This document shows positions 1-27,597 of a stretch of DNA of 64,000 nt, piece after piece. Source of the stretch: Escherichia phage BF17; the sequence record MW822008.1. One strand, 5' to 3'. Position numbers and translations under genes: made by a program. Each line of letters opens with the position of its first letter. The first letter of the stretch is position 1. Under the pieces are notes generated by a model. That model did not search any database, was not told the DNA's origin, and was given only the letters and a program-made list of their open reading frames with translations.

Positions 1-1
1 A

Positions 2-400
2 GAGCTTGATGTTGGTGAAAGGTATCAGGTGTGGAATAATTCATTTTTTAATAAAGAACATTCTTCGACGGCATTTTATATTTTAGCATTTAATCCCACC
101 AATTGTTACCCAGAGAAGCATGAACGTTATCCGAATGACGACATGTGGTTTGAGTACAAAGAAGATTCTTATATGTCGTCAATTGTAGTTCCTGATGATT
201 TTAATGCACAAGATTTAACAGAAGAGTGGTGGTTCCAGCAGAATTTAGTACATGATGATATTGATTTATTTTTCTATATTGCATTTAAAATGCTTTATCA
301 CAACAATATAGTTAAAGAAAGTGTATCGTTTTCATGTCTATATATTGATGATTTGTACAATGAAATTCAAATAAACATGCCCAGAACGCCTGTATCGTAA
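2..400 (+). CDS. hypothetical protein, FQ-motif paralog family (5' partial, continues upstream of window)
   Basis: Open frame from window edge; motif EEWWFQQNLVHDD. Confidence 0.5.
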   Translation, partial: ELDVGERYQVWNNSFFNKEHSSTAFYILAFNPTNCYPEKHERYPNDDMWFEYKEDSYMSSIVVPDDFNAQDLTEEWWFQQNLVHDDIDLFFYIAFKMLYHNNIVKESVSFSCLYIDDLYNEIQINMPRTPVS

Positions 401-416
401 GATATGGGCTTTTTTC
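379..416 (+). terminator. possible intrinsic terminator
   Basis: gccca/tgggc stem with long loop followed by TTTTTT; weak. Confidence 0.25.
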
Positions 417-425
417 GTTTTGGTA

Positions 426-454
426 TTGACATAGAAGACCAAAGCTGTTATCAT
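426..454 (+). promoter_or_regulatory. sigma70-like early promoter
   Basis: TTGACA (426-431), 17 nt spacer, TGtTATCAT extended -10 (449-454). Confidence 0.4.
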
Positions 455-482
455 GTGTAATCATTTTAAAGGAGAACATATA

Positions 483-995
483 GTGAGTTTCATAATCCCA
501 AGTACATACGAAGATGCATCAAGTGCAGTTCATAAGATTCATTATATTTTTAATTTAATTATTAGATCTGCAAAAATTAAAATGTATGCACCTCTTGTGA
601 CAAATAATCGAAATGAAGAAATTTTTATTAGCACAGACAAAATTATTTTTCCATCTTTCCATGAAGATAGATTGTGGTTCATGCATTTAGCTGCATTACA
701 AAAATATAAAATGTCAATTCGTAATAATTTGGATATACCGTTATATCATCCTGATATTGGAGAGGATGAATATTTTCAGTACAGTACAGTACACCGCCAT
801 GAAGATATCTTTGTTGCTATGCTTATTGCTAAATTGAATACCGTTGATTTGGAGCAGCACAAATATAATAATACATCATGTAAGATCATAATCCCTGCAT
901 TCATAGCTCTTTATGATTATGTGGTGCATAACATAAAAGATGATACATATGCTTTCAATGAAGAGTATTTGGATTTTTTTAAGGAGAACATATGA
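483..995 (+). CDS. hypothetical protein, FQ-motif paralog family
   Basis: Track ORF 453..995; GTG at 483 follows AGGAG RBS and lies downstream of the promoter; motif DEYFQYSTVH. Confidence 0.55.
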   Translation: MSFIIPSTYEDASSAVHKIHYIFNLIIRSAKIKMYAPLVTNNRNEEIFISTDKIIFPSFHEDRLWFMHLAALQKYKMSIRNNLDIPLYHPDIGEDEYFQYSTVHRHEDIFVAMLIAKLNTVDLEQHKYNNTSCKIIIPAFIALYDYVVHNIKDDTYAFNEEYLDFFKENI

Positions 996-1522
996 GCAGT
1001 ACAACAGTACAGAAAGCAATGTCATTCAATGAAATTGGTACATTTAAAGATAAGATCATTGATTGCCTTGAATACATGATTTGTAGTAATATCGAAAGTA
1101 TCGAGATATTTAACAAGACAAATCGCTCTTACCATATGATGTACATTGCAAACAATAATGGTATCATTCCATTTATTTCGGATAGTACAATATGGTACGC
1201 ATGTGATACGAAAAAAACCACAATAGGTTTACATTTATTTGAGACACATTATGATCTAATTATTCCTGAACATTGTATGCAAGAAGAAGAATATTTTCAA
1301 ATGCAATGTATACATTCACCATTAGTGTTGTTTAGTTTATATATTATACCTTATATCACCAAATGTGTTCATGAGAATAAAGCTCCGTGGAATCATGAAT
1401 TTGTATCGTTGAAGTTATTGTATAATGTATTAGTAGAATATTATGATTACAGGCACAATGGTACAATCAGTGATGTATGGGATTTTGAATCGCTAAGGGT
1501 GAAAACATACACAGGTGAATGA
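992..1522 (+). CDS. hypothetical protein, FQ-motif paralog family
   Basis: ATGA overlap with upstream gene; motif EEYFQMQCIH. Confidence 0.6.
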   Translation: MSSTTVQKAMSFNEIGTFKDKIIDCLEYMICSNIESIEIFNKTNRSYHMMYIANNNGIIPFISDSTIWYACDTKKTTIGLHLFETHYDLIIPEHCMQEEEYFQMQCIHSPLVLFSLYIIPYITKCVHENKAPWNHEFVSLKLLYNVLVEYYDYRHNGTISDVWDFESLRVKTYTGE

Positions 1523-2138
1523 TATGACCAGAATTAAAATGTATGATTTGATGCAGTACAGTAAAATTGCCATTCCAGTGCTTAATAAAGTGCTGGATGC
1601 ATTCATTGCCAAATACCCTGAGAATTCAGTGTTATGTATTCCATTTAGCGTTCCAGATAAAGATGATATATTCCAAGTGAATGTCAGTACACGTGGTATT
1701 ACATTACAGCAGAAATACATGGATACGGAATATTATGGAATAAAGTTGGATTCAGTACAGGGTTCAAAATCAGCCTATGATTTTTTTGTTCCTAATAATA
1801 TAGAGTCATGGGAAACAAACATTTCAAAGAAAGATGAAAATGATGTTCCTATTAGTGGTGTGTTCAACAATAAAGTTTTTTATTATTACGAAACCGACAA
1901 ATTCCCTGAAGAGTTATATTACAATTCAGAAATGAATGAAGATGTAGATGCATTCATGTTTCAATTATCTTTAGTACATGATATCATTGATGTTCAAGAG
2001 TTAAGAGCAGAAATCAATTTAGCTAAAGAGTTATCGGACATGCTGCCACCGTTTAGTATGCTTTTTTGTGAAGGTGGTTATTTTTCAAAAGAAGTGTTTG
2101 AACATTTCGTAGATGTTGTAAAAGGGTTGGATATATAG
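1515..2138 (+). CDS. hypothetical protein, FQ-motif paralog family
   Basis: Track ORF; motif AFMFQLSLVHD. Confidence 0.6.
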   Translation: MNDMTRIKMYDLMQYSKIAIPVLNKVLDAFIAKYPENSVLCIPFSVPDKDDIFQVNVSTRGITLQQKYMDTEYYGIKLDSVQGSKSAYDFFVPNNIESWETNISKKDENDVPISGVFNNKVFYYYETDKFPEELYYNSEMNEDVDAFMFQLSLVHDIIDVQELRAEINLAKELSDMLPPFSMLFCEGGYFSKEVFEHFVDVVKGLDI

Positions 2139-2139
2139 T

Positions 2140-2334
2140 ATGCTTACAGTTGATGTTAAACAAAAATACCGTAAGTTTGATTGGTTCACCGATAGTTTCC
2201 AGCTTGAATTATTACATATGAATATCAGTGAAACATTATGTGCAGAAACACAAGATGAATTTGATGATAGAGTGATGAACATAGTAATGCTTTCTTGCTT
2301 TAAACATTTTGGTTATTTTTTCGGACAGAATTGA
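2140..2334 (+). CDS. hypothetical small protein
   Basis: 64 aa ORF abutting neighbours. Confidence 0.4.
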   Translation: MLTVDVKQKYRKFDWFTDSFQLELLHMNISETLCAETQDEFDDRVMNIVMLSCFKHFGYFFGQN

Positions 2335-2342: not shown

Positions 2343-2858
2343 ATGCATCAACACAAGCATCATTCATATGATTTTGCAATTAACATTATGAAGTTCATTC
2401 GAGCGTTGGAGGATGGGAAGCTTAGTCATAAGTACAGGAAAGAGGGTAACAATTGGTTCAGAAATGATTCCGAGTTCAGTTGTCATAAAATCGTGTATAG
2501 TAATCAGTACAGTGCCAATTACCTACAAGATGTAGTGATGTGTTTTGAATACGTGTTGCAGTTCAGGGGTTCAATCCAAGATGAGTTGATGGAGAACATG
2601 TACATCCGATACCTTCCAATGCTCAAAGATGAAAATGTATTATTAAATTCAATATACCAACGAGTTCGTGAAATTGAGTGCAGGGATATATTAGATACAG
2701 AAGAATCGTATTTCCAGCAATCCCTGATTTATTCACCTGATTTATTACAGGTACATAATTTGTTTAATACATTACGTCAGAACATCAGTACAGACATATT
2801 TTTGTCATTATCGGATTATGATACATTTGTCAAAGATTTAGAGGAAATAGGATTATGA
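2343..2858 (+). CDS. hypothetical protein, FQ-motif paralog family
   Basis: Motif ESYFQQSLIY. Confidence 0.6.
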   Translation: MHQHKHHSYDFAINIMKFIRALEDGKLSHKYRKEGNNWFRNDSEFSCHKIVYSNQYSANYLQDVVMCFEYVLQFRGSIQDELMENMYIRYLPMLKDENVLLNSIYQRVREIECRDILDTEESYFQQSLIYSPDLLQVHNLFNTLRQNISTDIFLSLSDYDTFVKDLEEIGL

Positions 2859-3196
2859 GTAGATTTTCGGTTTGTGTGGTAAACATAAAAAGTGATGGTA
2901 GTTTAATTGAATTAGATGTATATGATGATGATAATGCATATGGTATTAAAGTACAGGACAATGATGTGCAGTTCAGTTCAAGAACAAATTTTGAAAATCC
3001 AGTCCAAGTTCCTAATTTCATAGAAGATGAAGCAGCACGTTTCCAATACGAAACGGCATATGACAATGTACATATGCATATTATTATGCAACAAAGTTTA
3101 GTTCAATTAGTTCCTTTGTTCAGACAAAATATATATGTACATGAATTGTCGATCAATGACGTTCGCAGTTCCGTATTGTTCGATACAAATATGTAA
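2855..3196 (+). CDS. hypothetical protein, FQ-motif paralog family (divergent)
   Basis: ATGA overlap; motif ARFQYETAYD. Confidence 0.5.
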   Translation: MSRFSVCVVNIKSDGSLIELDVYDDDNAYGIKVQDNDVQFSSRTNFENPVQVPNFIEDEAARFQYETAYDNVHMHIIMQQSLVQLVPLFRQNIYVHELSINDVRSSVLFDTNM

Positions 3197-3206
3197 GGAA
3201 AGTACA

Positions 3207-3749
3207 ATGAGTTTATTAGATACATTAGAAAAAGACAGAAGTGCAATTAAGCGTTTAAAAGAGCAAGTACAAAAGATTGTATACAACGTTGATAAGTTTG
3301 AGGTTCCCGGAAGATTTGGTGATATTTCCCATACGGAGATCAAATCCCTTAAGTCAGATTTGTTGATTAAAAATAAAAATGGGTTGATTTTAGTTTTGAG
3401 TTCAGATATGATGGGGGCAACACATAGTTATAATGCAGTATCGGTGCGTTCAGAGTGTGAAGGTATATATCTATCACAGGGTTTCAATAGCGAGACACAG
3501 GTTTGTTTTTGTGATGCAGTACATGACCCTATGAAGTTCACGAGAAGTGAAGCCCAAGCGTTATTAGAGCTATCAGACGAGAGTTTGTTTCAGTACAGTA
3601 CAATGTATGACAATGATAAGCTTCGTTGTATGTACGCTGTAAAGCATTATACACAGGAGTTCTCTGGATTTGCATACCTTTTAGTTAGAACCAATACCAG
3701 ATATATTGATATGTTAGAAGATTACATCGATAAAGTTGTTAATGTATGA
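3207..3749 (+). CDS. hypothetical protein, FQ-motif paralog family
   Basis: Track ORF 3135..3749; in-frame ATG 3207 after AAGGA; motif ESLFQYSTMYD. Confidence 0.55.
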   Translation: MSLLDTLEKDRSAIKRLKEQVQKIVYNVDKFEVPGRFGDISHTEIKSLKSDLLIKNKNGLILVLSSDMMGATHSYNAVSVRSECEGIYLSQGFNSETQVCFCDAVHDPMKFTRSEAQALLELSDESLFQYSTMYDNDKLRCMYAVKHYTQEFSGFAYLLVRTNTRYIDMLEDYIDKVVNV

Positions 3750-4357: not shown

Positions 4358-4556
4358 AGACGTTTCATTTTGACAGGCCGCTGGAGGGGGTCAAAAAAAT
4401 TTCCGCTGAAAAACATGCTAAGGTATATGTTTAATATAAAGTTTTATATTGTGTTTTTTCAGAGTACAGTTCATGTTTCTTGAAACAAAAAATACCCCGC
4501 CGCCGAACGTTCTCCTTATATTGGAGTTTACCTTATTAATTATAGTAGAGATTAAG

Positions 4557-4934
4557 ATGGAAATAAAATATAATGAATTTTGTGCAAGGACATGGATGTA
4601 CACTGGTGAGTTAGTTACGCACTCTAACTTATACAAGGGTGATTTAAACTACGCTAGGGACAAGATTTTAAAGTACTGGAATGCTGACTTTTATTTGATG
4701 GATTTTAGTACTGGGTTTAGGGGTAAAGCAACCGAGATGTTGGACTATACAGTACTTGATGATTCTGCACTGTTTCAGGCGGCATTAGTATTTGATAAGA
4801 AGTACATCTGTACATTAGAAGAGATGATTGAATTACAGCGTAGAATTAAATGTATTCACAGGGAATGTATAGATATCTGGTGCAGTACTGGTGAAGATGA
4901 TTTTTGTAATCATTTCAATCTAGGGGAAGTGTGA
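4557..4934 (+). CDS. hypothetical protein, FQ-motif paralog family
   Basis: Track ORF 4449..4934; in-frame ATG 4557 after GC-rich leader; motif ALFQAALVFDKKY. Confidence 0.5.
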   Translation: MEIKYNEFCARTWMYTGELVTHSNLYKGDLNYARDKILKYWNADFYLMDFSTGFRGKATEMLDYTVLDDSALFQAALVFDKKYICTLEEMIELQRRIKCIHRECIDIWCSTGEDDFCNHFNLGEV

Positions 4935-5095
4935 TGGAATTTGATTTTTTAATATCAGTACATTCTTTTAAGCACAGTTATCAGTACTTTTGTAATTTAA
5001 ACAAAGGTGATTTGATTATGGATACAGATACAGAGGCTGTATACAGTTCTAATATTCTGTACAAATTCAGTACTAATCTGAAGGAGATTTTATGA
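4934..5095 (+). CDS. truncated paralog (N-terminal duplicate of the 5463 gene), 53 aa
   Basis: Untracked ORF; first ~27 aa near-identical to start of 5463..5819; stop overlaps next ATG. Confidence 0.4.
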   Translation: MEFDFLISVHSFKHSYQYFCNLNKGDLIMDTDTEAVYSSNILYKFSTNLKEIL

Positions 5096-5463
5096 AAAAA
5101 GAAATTAGAATTCAATTCGGTATGAGGAAAAGAGAGGTCATCTGTACACTGAATCATGCGGTCGTGGAAAGCCTTGGTGGTGCATTACAAAAATTCTCCC
5201 ATTTTGTTCTTGTACTATATGAAAATGGGTCTTTTAAAATCTTCACATATGATGATTCAAAAAATTACCGTAATGATTTTGTAAATCTGACAGTACTGTC
5301 AGAAGAGGAATTCTTTCAGGAAAGTACTGTCTGGAATTTACCAGGAGCACCAATTGAATACGTCCGTGCTACACAGGCAGAAATGATCAAAGTAATGCAG
5401 AACTATCCAGAAGATTATATGACTAAGTTTCCTGAATCTATTTATGTAGAGGTTGAGTACTGA
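5092..5463 (+). CDS. hypothetical protein, FQ-motif paralog family
   Basis: Motif EEFFQESTVWN. Confidence 0.6.
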   Translation: MKKEIRIQFGMRKREVICTLNHAVVESLGGALQKFSHFVLVLYENGSFKIFTYDDSKNYRNDFVNLTVLSEEEFFQESTVWNLPGAPIEYVRATQAEMIKVMQNYPEDYMTKFPESIYVEVEY

Positions 5464-5819
5464 TGGAATTTGATTTTTTAATATCAGTACATACTTTCAA
5501 GCACAGTTATCAGTACTTTTGTAATTTAAACAAAGGTGATTTAATGCACAGTGCAAATGAGTATATTCATTACACTCAGGGTAAATTTACATTCATTGAT
5601 TACAGTTCATTACAGTATCCACACCAAGATATGCCGGACTATACATTAATGGATACCGCAGAACTATTCCAAGAATCATTAGTATTTGATAAGAAGTACT
5701 TGTGTACATTTGAAGAAGTTATTGCAATACAAAATGAAATGAAAGAGTATGCTGCTTTGCATAAACCCAATGCAAGTATTAATCAAGAATACAAATTCAA
5801 TTTAGGAATTCAAGAATGA
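5463..5819 (+). CDS. hypothetical protein, FQ-motif paralog family
   Basis: Motif ELFQESLVFDKKY. Confidence 0.65.
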   Translation: MEFDFLISVHTFKHSYQYFCNLNKGDLMHSANEYIHYTQGKFTFIDYSSLQYPHQDMPDYTLMDTAELFQESLVFDKKYLCTFEEVIAIQNEMKEYAALHKPNASINQEYKFNLGIQE

Positions 5820-6175
5820 CATATGATTATTCTATGTACTATTATAAGTTACCTAAAGGATGGGACTTGTGCTGTAATCTTATTAAGGGCGACTCGGAAC
5901 ATGAGTTGAGTTTATATATGCATTACAAAGATTCTTGTTTTAAATTTATTCATGTATCACATGACGACTATGACTATGAATCTGAGAGTCTTATAGATTA
6001 TACAGTACTGGACGATGGTGAACTATTTCAGGCTGCATTAGTGTTTGATAAGAATAAGTACTCCTGTACATTTGAAGAAATGGTTTCTTTGCAAAATGAA
6101 ATGAAGAGATTTGAAAAAGAAAACGTATTTAATCCATCCCCATCAAGAACGAATAATTATTATTTCAATATATGA
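5816..6175 (+). CDS. hypothetical protein, FQ-motif paralog family
   Basis: Motif ELFQAALVFDKNKY. Confidence 0.65.
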   Translation: MTYDYSMYYYKLPKGWDLCCNLIKGDSEHELSLYMHYKDSCFKFIHVSHDDYDYESESLIDYTVLDDGELFQAALVFDKNKYSCTFEEMVSLQNEMKRFEKENVFNPSPSRTNNYYFNI

Positions 6176-6184: not shown

Positions 6185-6676
6185 ATGACATTACAGAGTT
6201 CATTGGAAAAAGCAAAGAAGATTCATGAGTACATGAATATGGCAAAAGAAGGTTCAGTTTACGGTGTTTTCAAAGACACAAGTACTCAATATTATGTACC
6301 GGATAACCTCCTTTATAATGACTGCTCAGATACAGAAACGTGCGTACTGGATACAGAAACGTGCATACTAGATACCGACCCTAATGATTATGAATGCTTC
6401 ATTAATATGCATAATGAGTACATGGTCTATATTAATGATACAGATACCATCAACAGTACTGACAGCGATTCCAATGACATTATAATTCCGAGTGAAGTAC
6501 TGGAAGGTCCGTGGGATAGTGAAGAGTATTACTTCCAACAAAGTACTGTATATGATAATGAAGTACTTGATGTTATTATAATTATGTGGTACTTTAAAAG
6601 TATTGGTTCTGGGAACTTCTATTTCGATTACAAATACGTAAAGAAAACTGTAGATAACGGTATTAACAGGGGTTGA
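6185..6676 (+). CDS. hypothetical protein, FQ-motif paralog family
   Basis: Motif EEYYFQQSTVYDNEVLDVIIIMWYF. Confidence 0.7.
   Translation: MTLQSSLEKAKKIHEYMNMAKEGSVYGVFKDTSTQYYVPDNLLYNDCSDTETCVLDTETCILDTDPNDYECFINMHNEYMVYINDTDTINSTDSDSNDIIIPSEVLEGPWDSEEYYFQQSTVYDNEVLDVIIIMWYFKSIGSGNFYFDYKYVKKTVDNGINRG
6329..6379 (+). repeat. 21-bp tandem repeat inside CDS
   Basis: gatacagaaacgtgcgtactg x2.4, encodes DTETCVLDTETCILDTD. Confidence 0.6.
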
Positions 6677-6677: not shown

Positions 6678-7148
6678 ATGAGTTTAGAAAGAGCATTAGA
6701 GATTGCGAAGTTAATTGATTTATGCAGCAAAGAAATTGTAGCAAATTGTCTTAATGGATATCTATTCAAGGAAGGTAAATCATATTGTCGAATGAGATAC
6801 GATGACAGTAGTGAGTACATTCACATGTATGAAGAAAACTTAGATTCTTCTGAAACAACACTCAATGGGTGTGATGTTAATTTGGAAGATAATTACATGT
6901 ACTTCTGTCGTGATGCTGATATTTTAATACAAGATTCTGACATTATATCTGGTGCAGCAGAGAAACATCTTCCGTATTCAGTACTGGATAATGACTGGGG
7001 AAGTGAAGAGTACTACTTCCAGCAGAATACTATCTACGAGGAAGATGTACTTGACAAGCTTGTCATTCTGTGGTACTTTAATAATACAGATTGTCCTAGC
7101 TTCTATTTGGACTTGGATCTACTACGAGTTATTAAAGAGGATATATGA
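6678..7148 (+). CDS. hypothetical protein, FQ-motif paralog family
   Basis: Motif EEYYFQQNTIYEEDVL. Confidence 0.7.
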   Translation: MSLERALEIAKLIDLCSKEIVANCLNGYLFKEGKSYCRMRYDDSSEYIHMYEENLDSSETTLNGCDVNLEDNYMYFCRDADILIQDSDIISGAAEKHLPYSVLDNDWGSEEYYFQQNTIYEEDVLDKLVILWYFNNTDCPSFYLDLDLLRVIKEDI

Positions 7149-7588
7149 GTTTAGCAAGTGCACTTGAACTAGCACACAGAATACATCACTTCCACGATAA
7201 CATAAAAAGTGGGTTCTATGGTGATAAAGTAAGTGCATTTGGTGATGAGTATTATCTATCAGGTATAAAGACATACTCTGATGATATTTTACTTATGGGA
7301 CAGGATAAAGACAATACTATACAGTACTCTTCATGTAGTCAATATACTAATTTTTTTGTATATATTCCAGGTACTAAGATTACTTTTGACACAACAAATA
7401 CACCTGTTGACTTCGGGGTACTTGATGGCCAGTGGGGTACTGAAGAGTATTACTTCCAACAGAGTCTCATTTTTAACCAAGAAATTCTTGATTCCTTGGT
7501 TGTGTTGTGGTACTTTAAGGAATTGAATTTTGAACCATTCTTTCTTGACTGGGGAGCATGTGAATATTTAAGTACAGGGGATTTGTAA
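7145..7588 (+). CDS. hypothetical protein, FQ-motif paralog family
   Basis: Motif EEYYFQQSLIFNQEIL. Confidence 0.7.
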   Translation: MSLASALELAHRIHHFHDNIKSGFYGDKVSAFGDEYYLSGIKTYSDDILLMGQDKDNTIQYSSCSQYTNFFVYIPGTKITFDTTNTPVDFGVLDGQWGTEEYYFQQSLIFNQEILDSLVVLWYFKELNFEPFFLDWGACEYLSTGDL

Positions 7589-8076
7589 TGTCATTACAAA
7601 GTGCATTGAAAGAAGCAAAGAAGATTCATGAGTACATGATTATGGTACAGGAAGGTTCAGTACCAGGTGTATATAAAACATCTGATACTGAATTTTTTGT
7701 AAAAGACCGTGACGATTATGACGAGTCCGAGATATGTGCAGAAACATTAGTACTGCACACTGATACTGGTGACAGTGATAACTGTGAATATCATATGTAC
7801 AATCAGTACATTAGTTATTGTCGTAATGAAGATATTACCATCTACAACACAGATAGTGATGCTGATGACACTATCATTCCTTATTCAGTACTGGAAGGAC
7901 CGTGGGATAGTGAAGAATATTACTTCCAGAATAGTACGTTGTACAATGAAGAAGAATTAGATGTTATTGTAATTATGTGGTATTTCAAAAGTATTGACTC
8001 CAGTAGTTTCTATTTTGATTATGAATATGTAGAGAATACTGTAGGAGAAGGTAATGTCATTACAAAGTGCTCTTGA
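7588..8076 (+). CDS. hypothetical protein, FQ-motif paralog family
   Basis: Motif EEYYFQNSTLYNEEEL. Confidence 0.7.
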   Translation: MSLQSALKEAKKIHEYMIMVQEGSVPGVYKTSDTEFFVKDRDDYDESEICAETLVLHTDTGDSDNCEYHMYNQYISYCRNEDITIYNTDSDADDTIIPYSVLEGPWDSEEYYFQNSTLYNEEELDVIVIMWYFKSIDSSSFYFDYEYVENTVGEGNVITKCS

Positions 8077-8506
8077 AAAAGCAAAAGAACTACATGGATA
8101 CTTTGACGATATAAAGGCAGGAAAGTTCAAAGAAGTGTACAAAGCCGAGAACGGCAACTACTACAAGGATGAAATGTATAATAACTCCGTTGGTGTAAGG
8201 GTTATTCTTGGGTTGAATTCCAATAGTCCTATATCGTTTTCTGAATACAATAGAGATGCAGAATTTATTAGTTATGTTGAAAATGGTAGCATTCGTTTTA
8301 TTAATCGCAAAAAACCATTAATTTTGAATTATGAAGTACTGGAAGGTCCGTGGGATAGTGAAGAGTATTACTTCCAAAACAGTACTGTTTACGATGATGA
8401 AGTACTTGAAGCATTAGTTATTATGTGGTACTTAAAGAGTGTTAACTGTCCTCGATTTTATTTGGATTTCGAAGAACTTCGTAAAGATCCAGAAGGTATA
8501 GAATGA
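8054..8506 (+). CDS. hypothetical protein, FQ-motif paralog family
   Basis: GGAG RBS; motif EEYYFQNSTVYDDEVL. Confidence 0.7.
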   Translation: MSLQSALEKAKELHGYFDDIKAGKFKEVYKAENGNYYKDEMYNNSVGVRVILGLNSNSPISFSEYNRDAEFISYVENGSIRFINRKKPLILNYEVLEGPWDSEEYYFQNSTVYDDEVLEALVIMWYLKSVNCPRFYLDFEELRKDPEGIE

Positions 8507-8817
8507 AAAACTTATTCAGTGTTCAGTACGTCCCTGGTGAAATTAGTTTATTGTATCTGTTTGATCATGATAATTCATTATTACTAGTAGTAAAGAAATG
8601 CCAAGCTAGTTCATTTGTTGAATACATTCACGATAGTGAATATATACCTGATTTTTTAGAGTGTGATTATTACGATGAACATGAATCATTTATTTTCCAG
8701 GAATCGCTCGTGTGGGATAAATCGATCAACTTCTTTACGTTAATTGAATTACAAAAGCAGGTGAAGTATCATTGGAATTACTTAATCACACAGGATTACA
8801 TTGAGATAGAAATATAA
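8503..8817 (+). CDS. hypothetical protein, FQ-motif paralog family
   Basis: Motif ESFIFQESLVWDKS. Confidence 0.6.
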   Translation: MKNLFSVQYVPGEISLLYLFDHDNSLLLVVKKCQASSFVEYIHDSEYIPDFLECDYYDEHESFIFQESLVWDKSINFFTLIELQKQVKYHWNYLITQDYIEIEI

Positions 8818-19414: not shown

Positions 19415-19979
19415 TTTTATTAAAAGTGTAGTACACCCTATGCTTAGTATTATGAAAAAAATACAGAATCTACCGGAAGATAACGATTACAAGTTTAATC
19501 GTTTTGATTCAGATGTGTTTTGTATTGAAATTGAAATTAATAACAATCGCAATTTACATTTAAAATTCAAAGAATCGTCAAGTCCGTACTACAACTTTGA
19601 TATGAATTTTAAAATAGATACTGACATTGAAGAAAACGTAATATCAAATCATACTAGCAAAAATGGTTTTATGCATAGAACTACTATGTACAATAATAAA
19701 AATAGTATTATATCTAAATGGAATCATCAATTCACTAAAATTTGTGAAATTGAATATAGTGATTTTGGTGAAGAGAATTACTTTCAGTTAAGTACAATTC
19801 ATGAACTTCCACCGTATGATTATGTTAAAACATGGTTTGATATTCATAATATAATTGATGATGCAATCAAACTTCCATTTGGTGTGTCAATATCATATAC
19901 TGCTCCTAAAACATTTGTTTTTACTGAAGATATGATTATGAAAAAGATATGGGCAATTATCCCACTTATGATGGATTAA
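19398..19979 (+). CDS. hypothetical protein, FQ-motif paralog family
   Basis: Motif EENYFQLSTIHEL. Confidence 0.6.
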   Translation: MKITNDFIKSVVHPMLSIMKKIQNLPEDNDYKFNRFDSDVFCIEIEINNNRNLHLKFKESSSPYYNFDMNFKIDTDIEENVISNHTSKNGFMHRTTMYNNKNSIISKWNHQFTKICEIEYSDFGEENYFQLSTIHELPPYDYVKTWFDIHNIIDDAIKLPFGVSISYTAPKTFVFTEDMIMKKIWAIIPLMMD

Positions 19980-19993
19980 ATTCGTACCAGGGG

Positions 19994-20022
19994 TTGACTC
20001 TGGTATTTTTGTATGATACATT
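19994..20022 (+). promoter_or_regulatory. sigma70-like early promoter
   Basis: TTGACT (19994-19999), 17 nt spacer, TGaTACATT; AAAGGAG RBS follows. Confidence 0.45.
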
Positions 20023-20040
20023 GTCCTAAAGGAGAATTTT

Positions 20041-20592
20041 ATGAACTACAATCATGATCTTTTTACATTATGTGCATCCAAATGTGTTGATGGATGGACA
20101 GATAAAATCAATACCATAATTCATCGATATCTGGTCTTTAGTTCTCGTGCACGAAGTGAGGGGGCTATGGATTTCAAATATACACTATCTATTGATGGTG
20201 TAACTATCCATGCAGACGAAGAACGTCTGAGCATTAATTTGTATGATTCCTGTGTATTTGCTATTCACCAAAAGATGGGGAAAGGATGGGGTTGTAATAA
20301 CATTAACTCAAAAGCTATCTTTTGGGTTGGTCACCACCAGACAGTACTTGATCCTTCAATCAAATCTAATCTTTTATCCGATAATATGGTTTATGATTTA
20401 TTGTACTCCGAAGAACAACATTTTCAGTTAAGTACATTACATGATCTGGCACAGTACGAGGATTGTTACAAAACATTAGAACTATGCCATTCCCTTGAAC
20501 TTAAAGATAAATTGATACAAGTTTACCCTTCATTCTTTCATGAAGAAGTACAAAGTACACTAGATCATATTTTATATGGATACGATAAATGA
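20041..20592 (+). CDS. hypothetical protein, FQ-motif paralog family
   Basis: Motif EEQHFQLSTLHDL. Confidence 0.6.
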   Translation: MNYNHDLFTLCASKCVDGWTDKINTIIHRYLVFSSRARSEGAMDFKYTLSIDGVTIHADEERLSINLYDSCVFAIHQKMGKGWGCNNINSKAIFWVGHHQTVLDPSIKSNLLSDNMVYDLLYSEEQHFQLSTLHDLAQYEDCYKTLELCHSLELKDKLIQVYPSFFHEEVQSTLDHILYGYDK

Positions 20593-21191
20593 GAAAAAGT
20601 TATCAAGAAGCTATTGACTTAATTCGTGAAGTTATCAAGGTGGCTCCTGCTGCTATTGAGTTCAAGAAGTCCATATACAAGAAGTATGGTTCAATGTCGA
20701 GTATGTGCTTTCAAAAGAAACGTAGAGCATTCACTACCCAGTACTGGAATGATTCTATCATCCTGAGCAATGAGACTCAGCGTATTTTAACACTAGAATC
20801 TGAACCTAATGAGTACGGGGAAGGGAACATTTGTGTACCTGATTATGATGAAATTAACTTCAACTGCGGTGATTTTGAAACAACATTATTACTTCATGAG
20901 GGTTATCCAGAAGGTGATGTATTAGCTGAGTACAATCCAAAAACTAAAATTCTCAAAAGAGGAATCCAGTTCACTATTAATAACAAAGATGATGTTCAAG
21001 CAGCACTGATGCAACTGAGTACAAGTGAACCTATCACTATTAGTGTAGAAGAGTTATGGGGAATTATTTCAGTACTCAATGAGTGCTACAAAGTAAAATC
21101 ATTGCGTAAACACAGCATTATATTACATACCAATATGGCAAATATAAAATGTAAGCACATTCAAGAAATGGTGGTTCCAGATGGACTTTAA
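20589..21191 (+). CDS. hypothetical protein, FQ-motif paralog family (degenerate)
   Basis: Motif QAALMQLSTSEP. Confidence 0.5.
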   Translation: MRKSYQEAIDLIREVIKVAPAAIEFKKSIYKKYGSMSSMCFQKKRRAFTTQYWNDSIILSNETQRILTLESEPNEYGEGNICVPDYDEINFNCGDFETTLLLHEGYPEGDVLAEYNPKTKILKRGIQFTINNKDDVQAALMQLSTSEPITISVEELWGIISVLNECYKVKSLRKHSIILHTNMANIKCKHIQEMVVPDGL

Positions 21192-21765
21192 AGAAATTGA
21201 AAGTAAATTAAAGTACTTCAAAGATATCAAACTTCTTTGGAAAAAGTATAAAGTTGATTACAATTTCAGTGATGATGAGACAATAAAATACATTGAGATT
21301 AATATCAAAATCAAGTTCAAGAATAATAATTATGGTGAAGTAACCTTAAATCATACTGGTATATCACTCAAGGACTATGATGGTACAACACTCGCATATT
21401 TTGACTTCACACCAGAACCAGGTGAAACACTACTTAGTGAGATAAATTCCTATGACATGGAAGTGTTCGGCGGGAATCCGTTACTGTTCCGACTTTCTGA
21501 AGAGTGGAGTGAAGAGTACTACACTTACAAAGATGGTGTAGTACTTGATATTCATGGAGAAGTTGTGAATGACTTGGAAGAACGTTTGTTCCAAGAATTG
21601 TGTGTTTCAAATACTTCATATGCATACAATCATATCCTTGACATGTTTGATTTATATAGTAAAATAGATGCTGAAATGAAGGCACATGGTATTCATTACC
21701 TTACAATTAACGACTATGCTCAACTCGAAACCGCTGTGAAAGCATTGACTAAAGTACTGAAATAG
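21181..21765 (+). CDS. hypothetical protein, FQ-motif paralog family
   Basis: Motif EERLFQELCVSN. Confidence 0.55.
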   Translation: MDFKEIESKLKYFKDIKLLWKKYKVDYNFSDDETIKYIEINIKIKFKNNNYGEVTLNHTGISLKDYDGTTLAYFDFTPEPGETLLSEINSYDMEVFGGNPLLFRLSEEWSEEYYTYKDGVVLDIHGEVVNDLEERLFQELCVSNTSYAYNHILDMFDLYSKIDAEMKAHGIHYLTINDYAQLETAVKALTKVLK

Positions 21766-21774: not shown

Positions 21775-22188
21775 ATGAAACTGTATCATGCGAGTACTGT
21801 AAAAATTGATAACTTTTATATCCCGTATGGTGGTCTTCATATGGGAGGTAAACACAGTGCTTTGGAAGCTGCATTACGCAAGCTGAGAAGCCCACTGAAC
21901 GTAGTAGACGCATGTACAGTATACTTGCATACCTTAGAAGTTGATGTTGATAACGTGCTTCTGTGTGAAGATTTAGGCAGTGATGATGAGTGGCGTTCAC
22001 TTATTGAGAATTGCACTGCTCAAGGTTATGATGCTGTTCAGTACAAAAATGATTACGAGCCAGACAATGTTCCTAGCTTTATGATTTGGGATGCATCTAA
22101 AGTTCGCATCATTGAAGTTGATGCTATGCATATGGATGAAGCTGAAATGATTATCGAAGATTTTCTTGATGAATATGAAGGTGTATAA
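21775..22188 (+). CDS. hypothetical protein (non-family, GC-richer insert in array)
   Basis: 137 aa ORF, locally higher GC than neighbours, no FQ motif. Confidence 0.5.
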   Translation: MKLYHASTVKIDNFYIPYGGLHMGGKHSALEAALRKLRSPLNVVDACTVYLHTLEVDVDNVLLCEDLGSDDEWRSLIENCTAQGYDAVQYKNDYEPDNVPSFMIWDASKVRIIEVDAMHMDEAEMIIEDFLDEYEGV

Positions 22189-22724
22189 TGTCTGAACCGA
22201 TGGTAGCACTGGCACGTACAAAATTACTATTAAAGATTGGTGAGATTTTTACGGTTCTTCTGTCCAATAATATTGATATCACTGAGCTAGATATTAAGCA
22301 ACCGTGGGAAGTGACTATGTTCTCGGCGTTCCACCGATTGTCATATAAAGGTGAAAGTGTTCTTGATTTTAACCCTAAAGCAAAATTCATAGATTATGCT
22401 GCGTTGTACAGAGAGTTGCACAGAAATATTTATTCCGGTTGTATAACCAATAACTTCAAAGAAATTAAAGTTCAAACTGCATCACATGAGTTCAATGATT
22501 TACTTTATCCAGAATTTAATCTAACGGAAGAATTACTCTTTCAGTACTCGTTAATTCTCACAAATCTCGAAACACTAGAGTTCTACAAAGAGTTAGTAGA
22601 TATTTTTATGAATACACGACTTTCAAAAGATATTGTGATATTCTGGTATACAGAGCATGTTACGGAGGAATTGCTTACTGAATTTCTTCTAAATATGACA
22701 GCTATAAAGGAGAAGTTATGTTAG
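22188..22724 (+). CDS. hypothetical protein, FQ-motif paralog family
   Basis: Motif EELLFQYSLILTN. Confidence 0.6.
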   Translation: MSEPMVALARTKLLLKIGEIFTVLLSNNIDITELDIKQPWEVTMFSAFHRLSYKGESVLDFNPKAKFIDYAALYRELHRNIYSGCITNNFKEIKVQTASHEFNDLLYPEFNLTEELLFQYSLILTNLETLEFYKELVDIFMNTRLSKDIVIFWYTEHVTEELLTEFLLNMTAIKEKLC

Positions 22725-23191
22725 ATATTTTAGGAAACATCGATACTGCAAATTATTTTATCCAGGACGCACTGTTCAATACAGTTCAACAAGGATTAGA
22801 AGTTCGTCATAACGTTTACCAAGGTGATGGTTATTTCGTTGATATTGTTGAGGCACGAAAGAATACGTTTAATGTTAACATTACAACACTGGGTAGACAG
22901 AACATTGCACGAATTTTAGTAAGTAAAGATGAAATTGTATTGAGATACAGTGCTAAGTTTATGTTGACTTATAAGAAAAAAACTGATATGTTCAGTACTA
23001 ATTTATTTGATGAGCCATTTGACCTTGAAGATATTGAAGCTACTTTCTTTACTCAAAGTACTATGGTAAAATACACTGATGTTCAATTTTCTGCTGATGT
23101 AATGTCAGAAACATTACAAATGATCAAGGTATTATTTTATGCATTTGAGCAATTTAGAGAAGAAAGAAACAAGGTTAACAACCACAGATGA
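22718..23191 (+). CDS. hypothetical protein, FQ-motif paralog family (divergent)
   Basis: Motif EATFFTQSTMVKY. Confidence 0.55.
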   Translation: MLDILGNIDTANYFIQDALFNTVQQGLEVRHNVYQGDGYFVDIVEARKNTFNVNITTLGRQNIARILVSKDEIVLRYSAKFMLTYKKKTDMFSTNLFDEPFDLEDIEATFFTQSTMVKYTDVQFSADVMSETLQMIKVLFYAFEQFREERNKVNNHR

Positions 23192-23204
23192 ACTAATAGA
23201 GGCG

Positions 23205-23552
23205 ATGACTAAGGAGTCAAAATACCACAAAGGGATTCGTCTATATTTTATAGATATTGGTTCAATGGAAGGCATATACATTTATGGTTCACAATCTTTA
23301 TCTTATGATGTAATGCCAAAAAAACATGTAAAAATCTTTTTAGGTTCAAATAAAAAAACTTTCTTGACAATTAATGATAAAAACGTTATTATGAATTCGT
23401 TGGGTCATGATAAGGTGGAAATTGATCTAAACACACTGGAGGATATTGATTTTTTTCAATACGAGTGTTTAGGTGTTGACTTACATGGCATTAGTAGCGA
23501 TATGATAAAATCATTAATCAAATATTTCGAAGGTGTTCATAAATGTATCTAA
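23205..23552 (+). CDS. hypothetical protein, FQ-motif paralog family (divergent)
   Basis: Track ORF 23139..23552; in-frame ATG 23205 after previous stop; motif IDFFQYECLGVD. Confidence 0.5.
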   Translation: MTKESKYHKGIRLYFIDIGSMEGIYIYGSQSLSYDVMPKKHVKIFLGSNKKTFLTINDKNVIMNSLGHDKVEIDLNTLEDIDFFQYECLGVDLHGISSDMIKSLIKYFEGVHKCI

Positions 23553-24040
23553 CTAAATCAATGAAAAATTCATTTGATAAAATCAAGAGTTGTCTTGATG
23601 GGGAAAATATTACAAGTGTTACACAAACTGCTGACCAAATTCAAAGCAGTTCAAGTGATTGTACTGTTATTTTAGGTTTACATAGTCTACGTTTATCAAT
23701 AGTAAATAATATTGACAACACTGCTATTGTAATCACACCATGCCATATTCAAAATGAGAATGGTGTATATCTTCATCACATGGGAACAGTATTTCATATT
23801 TTCAATACAAACGAAAACATTGTTAAGGAATACAATACTCTTAATATTGATTCAGGTGAATTATTTCAAATGAGTACTTTGTACTCATGTAATTTTACAG
23901 ATACTTCATGTATTTTGCCATTTTTCTTGGAAATTATTAAGAAAATGGAAAATTTAAAACGTGAATACAATAAAGAAATGGTTCCTGAAGCTATATTAAA
24001 TATTACTAATGCTATAGAGAAGTATAATGCAGTGACTTAA
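23543..24040 (+). CDS. hypothetical protein, FQ-motif paralog family
   Basis: Motif GELFQMSTLYSCNF. Confidence 0.6.
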   Translation: MYLTKSMKNSFDKIKSCLDGENITSVTQTADQIQSSSSDCTVILGLHSLRLSIVNNIDNTAIVITPCHIQNENGVYLHHMGTVFHIFNTNENIVKEYNTLNIDSGELFQMSTLYSCNFTDTSCILPFFLEIIKKMENLKREYNKEMVPEAILNITNAIEKYNAVT

Positions 24041-24713: not shown

Positions 24714-25568
24714 TTGTATATGTTAGACATTTCAGATTTTCTTAATTTTAAAAAGTATTCAGTACTTGAACATATCAACGAATTTCTGAATTCTACTACA
24801 CCATTTGGTATCAGTACATCAGATGCATACGATGGATATACAATCTTCCCATACAATGACTTTCAAATTTCCGTCAAAAAAGGTATTACAAAAGAAGTTG
24901 CAATTCGTGATGTAGTAATGTATAGCGATTCTTCTATTTCTTACTGTCATGATGTGAACAAGTTTGAATCTCTTGCAACACCTAATTGTTCATACTACAA
25001 ATCCCATGACACGATGATGTATAAAGAACAACATATCAATGGTGTTTCGTTCTATAAAACTAGCAGTGATAAATCATATACATCTAGAGATGATTTTGGA
25101 AAATACACATGTACTATGCACACGGATAATGAAAAAACAAATTACACTCATTCATTCGAGTCCAAATTCCAAGAGAGTGAAGTTTCAAATATCACTATAC
25201 AAGAACAGGTTTCAGAAGGCATTGTATATCGTAGCACTGCATTCTTTCGCATGAAAGATATTGCCACAGGCAGACCAATGATGTACAATATTGATATATA
25301 CATGAAAGGTGATATATCCGAAGTAGTGATTAGTACTGGTTATCGTGAAAAATATACAGTTACAATGGAATCACCAGATGCATCATTAGTTCACCTCTTT
25401 AACAATTTATATACATTCCAATTCGAACTTAGTTTCGATCCAAATGAATATCAAATATTTGATATATTAAAAAGTAATATTATTAATAAGTTAGAATATT
25501 ACTACAAGTTAGGTGGTAAGATGTGCATAGTTAATACTATGTTACATAACATAAAAGAAACATTATAA
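24714..25568 (+). CDS. hypothetical protein
   Basis: 284 aa track ORF. Confidence 0.55.
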   Translation: MYMLDISDFLNFKKYSVLEHINEFLNSTTPFGISTSDAYDGYTIFPYNDFQISVKKGITKEVAIRDVVMYSDSSISYCHDVNKFESLATPNCSYYKSHDTMMYKEQHINGVSFYKTSSDKSYTSRDDFGKYTCTMHTDNEKTNYTHSFESKFQESEVSNITIQEQVSEGIVYRSTAFFRMKDIATGRPMMYNIDIYMKGDISEVVISTGYREKYTVTMESPDASLVHLFNNLYTFQFELSFDPNEYQIFDILKSNIINKLEYYYKLGGKMCIVNTMLHNIKETL

Positions 25569-25878: not shown

Positions 25879-25886
25879 TGAAAATA

Positions 25887-25925
25887 ATGTGAACATATTA
25901 GATTCTTGTGATATAATGTTCACAT
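25887..25925 (+). promoter_or_regulatory. early promoter -10 embedded in 10-bp inverted repeat
   Basis: atgtgaacat (25887-25896) and atgttcacat (25916-25925) flank TGaTATAAT (-10 at 25912-25917). Confidence 0.45.
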
Positions 25926-25949
25926 CTTTTTTTGATAACGGAGATATAG

Positions 25950-26336
25950 ATGAATACAAGTTCAATCCTAAAAGCAATTGGTGGTGTTTTACTCATTGAA
26001 GTAAAAGGTGAGCCAAAGCTATGCTGTTTAGAAGATATGAAGAATACAAAACACTTCAGTACTGGTCAGATTTTCAATGCCATTCGTATTCTAAATGACA
26101 AATCCATTGCTGATTATGGAAAAGTTTGGCCTGTATATCAAAATGCTGATGGTGATATCAGTACTGATTGGAAAACAATTGAGGCGGTACGACAAAGTTG
26201 TGAGAGTGATTGGGACTTCATTGTTGAAGTTTGTGATCAACTACAAGAAGATGTTCCAGAAATTGTCGAACGAAAAGAAGTCCTAGCACGACTTGAAAAA
26301 TTCCGTCACGGAACACTACAGTATAACACAATCTAA
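25950..26336 (+). CDS. hypothetical protein
   Basis: 128 aa track ORF; GGAG RBS. Confidence 0.5.
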   Translation: MNTSSILKAIGGVLLIEVKGEPKLCCLEDMKNTKHFSTGQIFNAIRILNDKSIADYGKVWPVYQNADGDISTDWKTIEAVRQSCESDWDFIVEVCDQLQEDVPEIVERKEVLARLEKFRHGTLQYNTI

Positions 26337-26385
26337 TCTGCTTATTAAAAATATCTAATTAACATTATATAAAAGGAATTTAAAA

Positions 26386-26691
26386 ATGGAAGACAATGGA
26401 ATGAAATTTGATATGTTTGAAGGTGTACCAGAGTTCGATTTCAACAAACTTGAAGAAGGTGAGGAATCAGAACTAGTCAGTGTTACACTTAAAGCAGATT
26501 CTAAGAAGAAATATTCATCAGCAGTACGTTCACGTTCACAAGAAGAATACGAAACATTTATTGAAAGTATTCATTATGAAACATTCCATCATGCAGATGG
26601 AACTCCATATGAAGTACGTGTAACAGTACTGAAGCCTGAAGTAAATCCAATGGAAAATCTACGTCCTGTTTACTGCTGGGCAAGTCACTAA
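26386..26691 (+). CDS. hypothetical protein
   Basis: 101 aa track ORF; AAGGA RBS. Confidence 0.5.
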   Translation: MEDNGMKFDMFEGVPEFDFNKLEEGEESELVSVTLKADSKKKYSSAVRSRSQEEYETFIESIHYETFHHADGTPYEVRVTVLKPEVNPMENLRPVYCWASH

Positions 26692-26698
26692 TAAACCA

Positions 26699-26731
26699 AA
26701 GGACGGGATTTGTTATCTCGTCCTTTTTTTG
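26699..26731 (+). terminator. intrinsic terminator
   Basis: aggacg...cgtcct hairpin followed by TTTTTTT. Confidence 0.55.
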
Positions 26732-26742
26732 TCTGGAGATGT

Positions 26743-27597
26743 ATGAAACTTTATCTAATCGTTGACTACAATAAGGATTATGCTGGTAACTTCACCGAAG
26801 ATTCGGATGGATATTGCACATCGACTAATGTCAATGTACGTAGCAGTAGTGCTCATGAACATGAATCTTGTAAAAATCTAAAAGATTTTATCGCATACCG
26901 AGCATTTGAAAAGAACTTCTGCCGCAGTAGATATTCGAAGTTTGAGTACCCGTTAATTGATGTTCCTGATGATTTAATGTTCCAGTTAATGCTAACTGGA
27001 GTTCAAGATTATGATTACATAGCATATAATCATATTACTAAGAAAATTTATATTGGTACATCATCACATGACACTTCTATGTATGCATCATGCCCAGATG
27101 ATCGAATGAATGATAGAAAATCATACTATAGTGGATCAGTTGGTTTAAATGATTCATTAAATGAAAATTTATTCTTTGAGTATGTTTATGATTACCATCA
27201 TGAGAAAAAAGAACGTGAAGATTACTGTATAGCAATTGATAGTACTAATGGGTATGAAGACGTGAAAGAAGCACTTATGCCGTACATTATTGAAAAGTAC
27301 TACAAAGATTTTCAGTACTGTAGTAATTTTCTAATCAGAAATTCTATTATAATCGGTCGCCAATCTAGTGCATACTCTCAGTACTATAATGATTCACCAG
27401 TAGCATCGGCAAATGAAATGTGTGATATTTTACAAATTCCACGTGAAGATATGGCATTCATTTTTACATCTTTTATTGAAGATGATGAGTTGTATATTAA
27501 AAATAAACACCGTTTCATGCCAAGCAAGATTGAGGTTATTCGAAGTTTTAGTGTTGATATACTAACAAATTTCACAGAAAAAACCGAATATAACTGA
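26743..27597 (+). CDS. hypothetical protein, FQ-motif paralog family
   Basis: Track ORF 26710..27597; ATG 26743 after GGAG and downstream of terminator; motif DDLMFQLMLTGV. Confidence 0.55.
   Translation: MKLYLIVDYNKDYAGNFTEDSDGYCTSTNVNVRSSSAHEHESCKNLKDFIAYRAFEKNFCRSRYSKFEYPLIDVPDDLMFQLMLTGVQDYDYIAYNHITKKIYIGTSSHDTSMYASCPDDRMNDRKSYYSGSVGLNDSLNENLFFEYVYDYHHEKKEREDYCIAIDSTNGYEDVKEALMPYIIEKYYKDFQYCSNFLIRNSIIIGRQSSAYSQYYNDSPVASANEMCDILQIPREDMAFIFTSFIEDDELYIKNKHRFMPSKIEVIRSFSVDILTNFTEKTEYN

Follow-up and report, generated by a model that had tools for sequence, protein, structure and literature searches.

A superfamily of tandem FQ-motif paralogues in Rak2-like jumbo phages

Introduction

Terminal multigene families are documented host-range determinants of African swine fever virus (ASFV; the multigene families MGF360, MGF505 and MGF110) and of poxviruses. 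They consist of dozens of diverged, co-directional tandem paralogues beside the terminal repeats. Copy number varies by strain, gain, loss and fusion proceed through unequal recombination, and the products are presumed to act on the host and not in the virion. A 64,000-nucleotide stretch of Escherichia phage BF17 (MW822008.1; hereafter the window) contains an array with the same layout. It encodes small proteins sharing an invariant Phe-Gln pair (FQ proteins), as diverged tandem paralogues near a terminal repeat, with varying copy number and recombinant members, and here too the products are presumed to have their role in the host cell, not in the particle. In contrast to the families of ASFV and the poxviruses, the FQ proteins belong to a virus of bacteria, and each consists of one small domain with a single invariant FQ helix; their sequence and predicted fold are unrelated to those of the eukaryotic viral proteins.

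Ocr, Arn, the ArdA-type mimics and the open reading frames (ORFs) of the T4 hyperplastic region resemble the FQ proteins in being small, acidic, apparently soluble and located among early genes. Like the anti-defence genes of T-even and T7-like phages, the FQ array also lies near RNA-repair counter-defence genes (RnlA and PNKP). Ocr, Arn and ArdA are, however, single genes, whereas the FQ family has about 60 members. No sequence or fold similarity between FQ proteins and these known DNA mimics was found, and the shared acidity (FQ proteins are mostly acidic, with a median pI of 4.96 and a net charge down to -26) is a weak criterion.

Tandem gene arrays have been mentioned in passing for the jumbo phages 121Q and G (PMC5646251) and for phAPEC6 (PMC7247149). 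Those arrays are of the same genus as the one described here, and tandem duplication was regarded there as a route of genome expansion, without a definition of a family, motif, structure or distribution. Literature searches yielded no description of the FQ family, its motif, its fold or its extent within the genome or the clade. A first-pass annotation of the window, made from the letters alone, had pointed to the array and proposed an effector or inhibitor repertoire in which a variable N-terminal part is joined to a constant C-terminal scaffold, docking or targeting module.

Detection of the FQ family

The source phage is a jumbo phage of the genus Asteriusvirus (PBECO4/121Q-like). By megablast, window positions 1-25000 matched vB_EcoM_CRJP21 (OQ708376, 30660-55668) over the full length at 98% identity, and 34 other Asteriusvirus genomes, including PBECO4, 121Q and phAPEC6, matched as well. 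Every gene under the CRJP21 match is labelled 'hypothetical'.

The motif as first described matched nine window ORFs when applied as a strict regular expression and 18 in a looser form. BLASTP among the window ORFs connected only groups of 9, 9 and 2, which shows that pairwise methods do not suffice for a family of this divergence. A local profile hidden Markov model (HMM), seeded on motif-centred segments and iterated to convergence, scored 32 window ORFs at 32 to 63 bits, while the best of 1,340 shuffled controls reached about 10 bits. The profile was broadened with members from Klebsiella phage RaK2, from metagenomes and from the region upstream of the window, and iterated, members being accepted from 3 bits above the highest score among 1,815 shuffles. 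Seven further ORFs were added, including 35131-35709 and 35706-36395, giving a total of 39 (Table 1). About 11 more window ORFs carry a degenerate motif recognized by eye, without statistical support, and several of these motifs are kept in the orthologues of RaK2 or Serratia phage BF. The original count of about 45 tandem paralogues was therefore fair.

The motif aligned across all 39 members, with the consensus [LDM]-[TS]-E-E-x-[YL]-F-Q-x-S-[TL]-[VIL]-[YHFW]-[DN]. Phe and Gln are invariant (39/39), the upstream Glu-Glu is present in about 26 of the 39, and the same pattern was seen in RaK2, BF and the metagenome contig L002. The Phe stands at a median of 0.66 of the protein length, in agreement with the position about two-thirds along that had been noted. 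Both codons were used for the invariant residues (TTT 21 and TTC 18 for Phe, CAG 22 and CAA 17 for Gln); as had been argued, conservation thus acts at the protein level. The motif expression gave 37 matches up to 37 kb and none in the 52 ORFs beyond.

Layout and extent of the array

All FQ members lie on the + strand. The 52 junctions within 1-24.1 kb include 33 overlaps, 12 of them ATGA, and 11 gaps of at most 15 nt, which bears out the description of co-directional genes with short overlaps. The first-pass annotation had assigned nearly every ORF of the first 27.6 kb to the family. This was correct for most of them, but not for 3904-4357, 8817-9125, two genes of about 70 amino acids (aa) at 10082-10469, 21775-22188 and 24083-26691. 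The outlying genes at 35131-36395, also named there, are members.

The bounds given for the array were too narrow in another respect, as the window start cuts it. In CRJP21 six further members lie within 4.3 kb upstream (26396-30246), and the main block comprises 45 supported members in one head-to-tail array of about 30 kb. A six-frame scan revealed about 19 additional members elsewhere in CRJP21; every one is on the + strand and shows the [ST]EExxFQxS motif clearly. A second cluster, at 273.6-293.7 kb of OQ708376, holds at least 13 of them, and single members lie near 105, 121, 309, 314, 330 and 343 kb. The genome total is about 60 to 64 FQ members among about 580 unique genes. Three larger members outside the main array (198-223 aa) bear a basic N-terminal extension.

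CRJP21 has a direct terminal repeat of 20,152 bp, which is 100% identical at both ends (segments L001 1-20152 and L007 29751-49902). It is followed by about 30 tightly packed genes for proteins of about 70 aa, which belong to a second family, and then by the FQ array from 26.4 kb, about 6 kb past the repeat.

The non-FQ gene 21775-22188, which is embedded in the array, is well conserved and occupies the identical relative position in the arrays of RaK2 and Serratia phage BF. Its homologues were found only in Rak2-like phages and metagenomes. In the record of the related phage ph0011 it is labelled 'putative ADP-ribosyl transferase', for which no support was obtained from Pfam, PHROG functions or the Protein Data Bank (PDB).

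Distribution and family assignment

An exhaustive search of 1.84 billion representative proteins with the module profile gave only 75 matches at E <=0.001, all of 49-200 aa and alike in the relative position of the module. When the full-length alignment was used for a word-indexed search of 5.8 billion proteins, 24 matches resulted, and those with names came from phages or contigs of Asteriusvirus size. One distant match (P0064), which had no tblastn match in the phage collection, sits on a metagenome contig of 13 kb, which is an FQ array in its own right with about 18 members. RaK2 has about 31 members in a syntenic array upstream of dam, a cytidylyltransferase gene and rnlA; Serratia phage BF has about eight. 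Synteny of the array extends over RaK2, BF and the metagenome contig L002. The motif and the array order are shared by phages of Escherichia, Klebsiella and Serratia although their RnlA proteins are only about 60% identical.

Pfam-A gave no significant family for 10 members searched singly or for all 30 members of alignment A1, and PDB sequence searches with either profile gave no match. NCBI-style searches with single members and with profiles were equally negative. The 30 long members are spread over at least 25 PHROGs (9317, 12674, 13866 and at least 22 others), all of 'unknown function'. As these groups are unconnected, the superfamily as such has not been recorded. The FQ family is a real, lineage-specific superfamily of Rak2-like jumbo phages and resembles no known protein family or solved fold; the first reading of the window likewise could not assign it to a family.

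Predicted structure

AlphaFold2 models were obtained for a long and a short member. For the long form 6185-6676, modelled with a 30-paralogue alignment, the predicted local distance difference test (pLDDT) was 85.3 and the predicted template modelling score (pTM) 0.79. The model has a helix at residues 3-22, six strands, a helix at 103-107 and a helix at 113-120 (EEYYFQQS, block pLDDT 95-96), followed by a helix at 125-139, a strand at 145-147 (FYF) and a helix at 149-158. The short form 5463-5819 (pLDDT 86.2, pTM 0.83) has five strands, an FQ-bearing helix at 65-74 (pLDDT about 94), a helix at 83-99 and a final strand. Both models share the order sheet, FQ helix, long helix and strand, and the long form adds the N-terminal helix. 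Each member, of about 100-200 aa, is accordingly predicted to be one compact alpha/beta domain with a five- or six-stranded sheet and an optional N-terminal helix. Residues 47-66, approximately, of 6185-6676 contain an internal near-repeat (DTETCVLDTETCILDTD) in a low-confidence loop of the model, which illustrates how the stretch from the N-terminal helix to the FQ helix varies and abounds in indels.

Foldseek searches of the predicted viral structures in BFVD returned only uncharacterized phage proteins, from 121Q, SP27, RaK2 (five proteins), GAP32, Yersinia phages fHe-Yen9-03/04, Serratia phage BF and Erwinia phages. The alignments were full-length, over 160-190 columns, with TM scores of up to 0.7; the models gave no convincing Foldseek match to a known fold.

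At the level of sequence the forms have much less in common. Alignment of the long and short profiles with hhalign covered only 17 columns around FQ (probability 82%, E = 1e-5), and N-terminal profiles of the subfamilies showed no significant similarity to each other, the best pair being the N-terminal helix (P = 0.002). Judged from the alignments, conservation is confined to the FQ signature, and the predicted sheet and loops are hypervariable. The proposed combination of a variable N-terminus with a constant C-terminal module therefore holds for the sequence. As a detachable docking module it was not upheld, since FQ lies within a confidently predicted helix of a compact domain and Foldseek aligned the whole proteins; both point to the core of one fold.

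Selection, turnover and recombination

The ratio dN/dS (omega) was determined between the window and its orthologues in ph0011, whose DNA is about 85% identical. The 29 core members with a clear orthologue gave values of 0.05 to 0.57, all below 1; they are thus real genes under purifying selection, as had been supposed. RnlA (0.06) and Dam (0.07) served for comparison, and the pooled value for neighbouring non-family genes was 0.18. Within the family the pooled omega was 0.28 for the N-terminal part (dN 0.178), 0.15 for the 15-residue core (dN 0.111) and 0.26 for the C-terminal part, and dN was higher in the N-terminal part than in the rest for 24 of the 29 members. FQ genes evolve faster than housekeeping genes, and fastest before the motif.

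The gene content of the array is variable. The block 1-5460 is absent from PBECO4 and UB, a replacement is seen past 14650 in slurp01 and E9.1, and blocks also vary in other strains. Between the three genera the copy number ranges from about eight in BF through about 31 in RaK2 to about 60 in CRJP21. Two natural chimeras were identified among database proteins. P0057 consists of the first 84 residues of 11618-11980 and the last 30 of its neighbour 11970-12305, with the junction about 15 residues downstream of FQ. P0046 joins an N-terminal part of the 4449 type to a C-terminal part of the 5463 type, with the junction inside the FQ core. From these chimeras, genes are seen to be lost and shuffled through unequal recombination within the conserved C-terminal module. 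Tandem duplication and this recombination make the family expand, contract and reshuffle.

Expression signals and virion data

Strong sigma-70 promoters with an extended -10 element stand in the rare gaps of the array (Table 1) and suggest early transcription by host RNA polymerase. The location near the terminal repeat also fits the early expression assumed in the first-pass annotation. For phage CBB, early transcription of the equivalent region by the host polymerase has already been proposed (PMC5259590). The translations, inspected by eye only, showed no evident membrane segments or signal peptides. In phAPEC6 the orthologues of the array are gp404c-gp466c, and none of these is among the 62 virion proteins identified by mass spectrometry in that one phage (PMC7247149).

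Table 1. FQ members, possible members and other features of the window. Scores are in bits of the first profile; b, broadened profile.
Position	Strand	Feature	Score	Remarks
29..400	+	FQ member	52.3	N-terminus cut by window start; matches phrog_34516 only at 46-168
388..454	+	Terminator hairpin, then sigma-70 promoter		TTGACA-17-TATCAT, TG; intergenic
453..995	+	FQ member, long form	33.7	
992..1522	+	FQ member, long form	48.6	
1515..2138	+	FQ member, divergent	10.0; 17.5 b	FMFQLSLVHD
2140..2334	+	Possible degenerate member, 64 aa	not significant	DSFQLELLH
2343..2858	+	FQ member, long form	47.0	
2855..3196	+	FQ member, divergent	17.9 b	ARFQYETAYD
3135..3749	+	FQ member	47.1	True start probably near 3204
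4449..4934	+	FQ member, short form	46.0	True start probably 4554
5092..5463	+	FQ member, short form	41.5	
5463..5819	+	FQ member, short form	55.6	Modelled
5816..6175	+	FQ member, short form	46.8	
6185..6676	+	FQ member, long form	63.2	Modelled
6678..7148	+	FQ member, long form	48.6	
7145..7588	+	FQ member, long form	48.5	
7588..8076	+	FQ member, long form	58.0	
8054..8506	+	FQ member, long form	55.7	
8503..8817	+	FQ member, short form	38.4	
9122..9571	+	FQ member, long form	48.5	TEEGYFQGS
9568..10104	+	FQ member, divergent	29.9 b	QCFQLSCTD
10459..11019	+	FQ member, long form	46.2	
11010..11612	+	Possible degenerate member	no HMM support	HTFFQRTEFD at about 0.8 of length
11618..11980	+	FQ member, short form	55.4	N-part donor of P0057
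11970..12305	+	FQ member, short form	42.6	C-part donor of P0057
12265..12849	+	FQ member, long form	48.2	
12846..12875	+	Sigma-70 promoter before ORF 12909		Perfect consensus 12/12, extended -10
12909..13385	+	FQ member, long form	60.1	
13382..13876	+	FQ member, long form	51.1	
13842..14204	+	FQ member, short form	54.9	
14188..14601	+	FQ member, short form	37.3	
14589..15083	+	FQ member, long form	54.3	
15067..15609	+	Possible degenerate member	no HMM support	Size, position and IKFSLSDNE only
15606..16169	+	FQ member, long form	47.6	
16162..16680	+	FQ member, long form	47.0	DEVLFQLS
16679..16740	+	Bidirectional terminator hairpin and sigma-70 promoter		TTTACA-17-TATACT, TG
16756..17334	+	Possible degenerate member	5.3, not significant	VLMFNANLLYD
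17331..17915	+	Possible degenerate member	8.1 b, sub-threshold	FIFQKSLLDN
17902..18483	+	FQ member, long form	56.3	
18480..18908	+	Possible degenerate member	6.3	LALQYQVLYN
18905..19414	+	FQ member, divergent	32.8 b	
19398..19979	+	FQ member, long form	46.5	
19980..20040	+	Intergenic gap, promoter-like		TTGACT...TG..TACATT (about 19990-20025), read from sequence
20041..20592	+	FQ member, divergent	11.7; 29.4 b	EEQHFQLSTLHD
20589..21191	+	Possible degenerate member		AALMQLSTSE in FQ column of alignment A1
21181..21765	+	FQ member, long form	40.4	
21775..22188	+	Non-FQ gene embedded in array, 137 aa, acidic		MKLYHASTV...GGLHMGG; omega 0.11
22188..22724	+	FQ member, long form	32.2	
22718..23191	+	Possible degenerate member, kept in RaK2 and BF		ATFFTQSTM; RaK2 STFFTQRCL
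23139..23552	+	Possible degenerate member, kept in RaK2		IDFFQYECLG; RaK2 IDFFQYTCG
23543..24040	+	FQ member, long form	41.3	
24714..25568	+	Larger protein with FQ-like segment, membership doubtful	no HMM support	YTFQFELSFD; RaK2 YTFQSELLFG
26710..27597	+	Larger protein, FQ-like segment in N-terminal third, doubtful		DLMFQLMLTG; RaK2 EYVFQFMLMG; BF EAMFQLETLS
35131..35709	+	FQ member apart from main array	29.8 b; 33.0 in a further scan	PEHFQISTLYD
35706..36395	+	FQ member apart from main array	26.4 b; 33.7 in a further scan	EEEHFQLMMM
36657..39555, 45879..47297, 54706..55464, 56702..58141, 60407..61378		RNA-repair, Sir2, PIN-PhoH and WGR genes together		
48975..49670		ClpP homologue		Pfam CLP_protease, E = 4e-41

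Genomic setting and other observations

The window has a GC content of 30-36%, and the + strand holds nearly all ORFs. Downstream, the array is followed by genes for Dam, a cytidylyltransferase, RnlA, PNKP, a DNA ligase, ClpP, Sir2, a PIN-PhoH protein and a WGR-domain protein. ORF 36657-37799 is a T4-type RnlA RNA ligase and is identical in PBECO4 and 121Q. The RNA-repair-type cluster consists of RnlA, a polynucleotide kinase-phosphatase and an ATP-dependent DNA ligase; it is accompanied by a PIN-PhoH fusion, a member of the Sir2 family and a protein that ends in a WGR domain. The ClpP homologue and the T4-type prohead protease, which is annotated at another place in these genomes, are distinct.

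Two other families of small paralogues were noticed. The second family, already mentioned as following the terminal repeat, consists of proteins of about 65-85 aa, unrelated to FQ, with an L-x-F/Y-L/V-G-T-x-x-Q-E...I-x-x-L segment. About 30 closely spaced copies separate the FQ array from the terminal repeat (OQ708376, about 20250-28160), two copies lie inside the FQ array (10082-10300 and 10278-10469), and copies are also present in RaK2. The terminal repeat of CRJP21 is packed with small genes, each preceded by its own intergenic spacer. The third family (about 90-103 aa) occupies 31114-32523 of the window and probably continues to 33259 and at 34495-35123. Five of its members were joined by BLASTP, and their ph0011 orthologues are 55-75% identical, with omega values of 0.17-0.58.

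ORF 30375-31067 encodes a 230-aa protein with a net charge of -30, whose C-terminus consists of eight Asp and a final Glu (IDLDDDDDDDDE). It is highly conserved, with an omega of 0.03 against ph0011, and had no Pfam match. Directly past the array, 27598-28200 is a stretch of about 600 nt with a weak coding signal, in which an extended -10 promoter is immediately followed by a terminator hairpin. ORF 27925-28170 in this stretch has a TTG start, a pI of 9.7 and a dN/dS of 1.57 against ph0011, and is therefore probably no gene. A search for an RNA gene in 27598-28200 gave no significant Rfam match, and the folding z-score of -0.96 was no better than that of shuffled sequences.

The product names of OQ708376 seem to be displaced: Pfam identifies gp_411, named 'putative peptidase', as an AAA+ clamp-loader subunit, and gp_271, named 'Appr-1-p processing', proved to be a nucleotidyltransferase of the poly(A) polymerase or CCA-adding type. 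For the remark 'Phi92_gp213' in the ph0011 record, tblastn yielded no phi92 match.

Discussion

The reading that we favour, tentatively and with a probability of roughly 0.45, sees in the FQ proteins a diversified repertoire: soluble, made early and built on a common scaffold, they would bind or inhibit host proteins. Host RNA polymerase would transcribe the genes early from the sigma-70 promoters, and the soluble products would serve host take-over or anti-defence. The FQ helix may form the structural, and possibly functional, hub of the scaffold, while the variable sheet surface would be the recognition surface, with its own target for each paralogue. The presence of counter-defence-type genes (RnlA, PNKP, Sir2) among the neighbours was counted in favour of such a repertoire.

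Several points weigh against it. No FQ gene had an omega above 1 in the comparison with ph0011, and at the level of the gene an arms race is thus not indicated. Both structures were predicted from shallow alignments of 22-30 sequences. About 60 copies per genome are far above known anti-defence repertoires. Finally, the invariant Gln and the conserved Glu-Glu exceed what is usual for the maintenance of a fold; they hint at a shared ligand or partner and keep alive the alternative of an adaptor.

As adaptors, the FQ proteins would dock to one machine through the constant FQ module and recruit differing host proteins through the variable part, a model that comes near the proposal of the first-pass annotation. 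Candidates for the machine are the phage ClpP with a host unfoldase and the enzyme-like product of the embedded gene 21775-22188. The conservation of Phe, Gln and Glu-Glu here and in RaK2, BF and L002 is above that of an ordinary core, ClpP is encoded within the window, a conserved non-FQ gene stands inside the array in three genera, and the chimeras combine N- and C-terminal parts of different paralogues. However, the motif lies in a helix of a compact domain with pLDDT >90 and not in a tail or linker, the ADP-ribosyltransferase label could not be confirmed and, to our knowledge, the FQ motif is unlike any known Clp-docking motif. We consider adaptors unlikely. More specifically, the FQ proteins might be substrate receptors, the FQ helix plugging into one shared effector and the hypervariable sheet selecting the host protein, which we regard as improbable; the two machines named above would again be the candidate effectors. 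If true, the phage would possess about 60 targeting modules, interchangeable with one another, through which host factors are degraded or modified, and bacterial viruses would have their equivalent of the expansions of F-box, ankyrin and BTB proteins in giant eukaryotic viruses.

The array could also be genome filler, that is, mostly dispensable products of tandem duplication retained by a head-full packaging phage with an enlarged capsid. The ratchet idea, in which an enlarged capsid tolerates or needs extra DNA, was discussed by Hua et al. (2017; PMC5646251). The strong differences in copy number among genera and the absence of blocks from some strains would be explained in this way. Filler is nevertheless hard to reconcile with an omega below 1 for every orthologue pair, with the intact and tightly coupled reading frames, and with the persistence of motif and array order between phages as distant as their RnlA proteins indicate, and it too has little probability.

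A location inside the virion, as components of an inner body or as proteins ejected with the DNA like the internal proteins of T4, is very improbable. The phiKZ inner-body proteins do form a paralogue family, and the phiKZ-like bubblegram of 121Q suggests an inner body. On the other hand, gp404c-gp466c are absent among the phAPEC6 virion proteins, the N-termini are not conserved between subfamilies and offer no common targeting or propeptide sequence, and the genes lie in an early-type region behind sigma-70 promoters and not among late genes.

The least credible alternative is a proteolytic site (E-x-x-Y-x-Q followed by Ser or Gly), of the type cut by tobacco etch virus (TEV) NIa or picornaviral 3C proteases, at which cleavage after Gln would free the C-terminal helices: the linear E-x-x-[YL]-F-Q is shared (P6 Glu in 27/39, P3 Tyr in 13/39, P2 Phe and P1 Gln in 39/39), and 9122-9571 and 16162-16680 are strikingly like TEV and human rhinovirus 3C sites, respectively, but P1' varies between L, E, Y, Q, N and M, being Gly in a single member and Ser in none, the segment is predicted with confidence as a helix packed into the domain and not as an exposed flexible stretch, the residues after Gln are conserved to the same degree as those before it, and the scanned ORFs of the window yielded no protease but ClpP, the rest of the genome being covered only by annotations that proved unreliable. 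A candidate 3C-like protease, the 'putative peptidase' of CRJP21, was rejected as the clamp-loader subunit mentioned above. The likeness to TEV sites is probably coincidental.

The genes of jumbo phages mostly have no known function. About one-tenth of the genes in a jumbo-phage clade comprising Asteriusvirus, Alcyoneusvirus, Eneladusvirus and metagenomic relatives belong to one previously unrecognized superfamily, which can be diagnosed by a simple motif and whose fold, predicted with confidence, has no match in the PDB. Dozens of seemingly unrelated 'hypothetical proteins' are thereby reduced to one tractable question, and natural variation for experiments is at hand in the copy-number differences, the chimeras and the two forms, long and short. 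Should the family prove to serve host interaction or anti-defence, no larger repertoire of that kind would be known from any phage, and bacterial viruses would provide an example of the terminal multigene-family strategy of poxviruses and ASFV.

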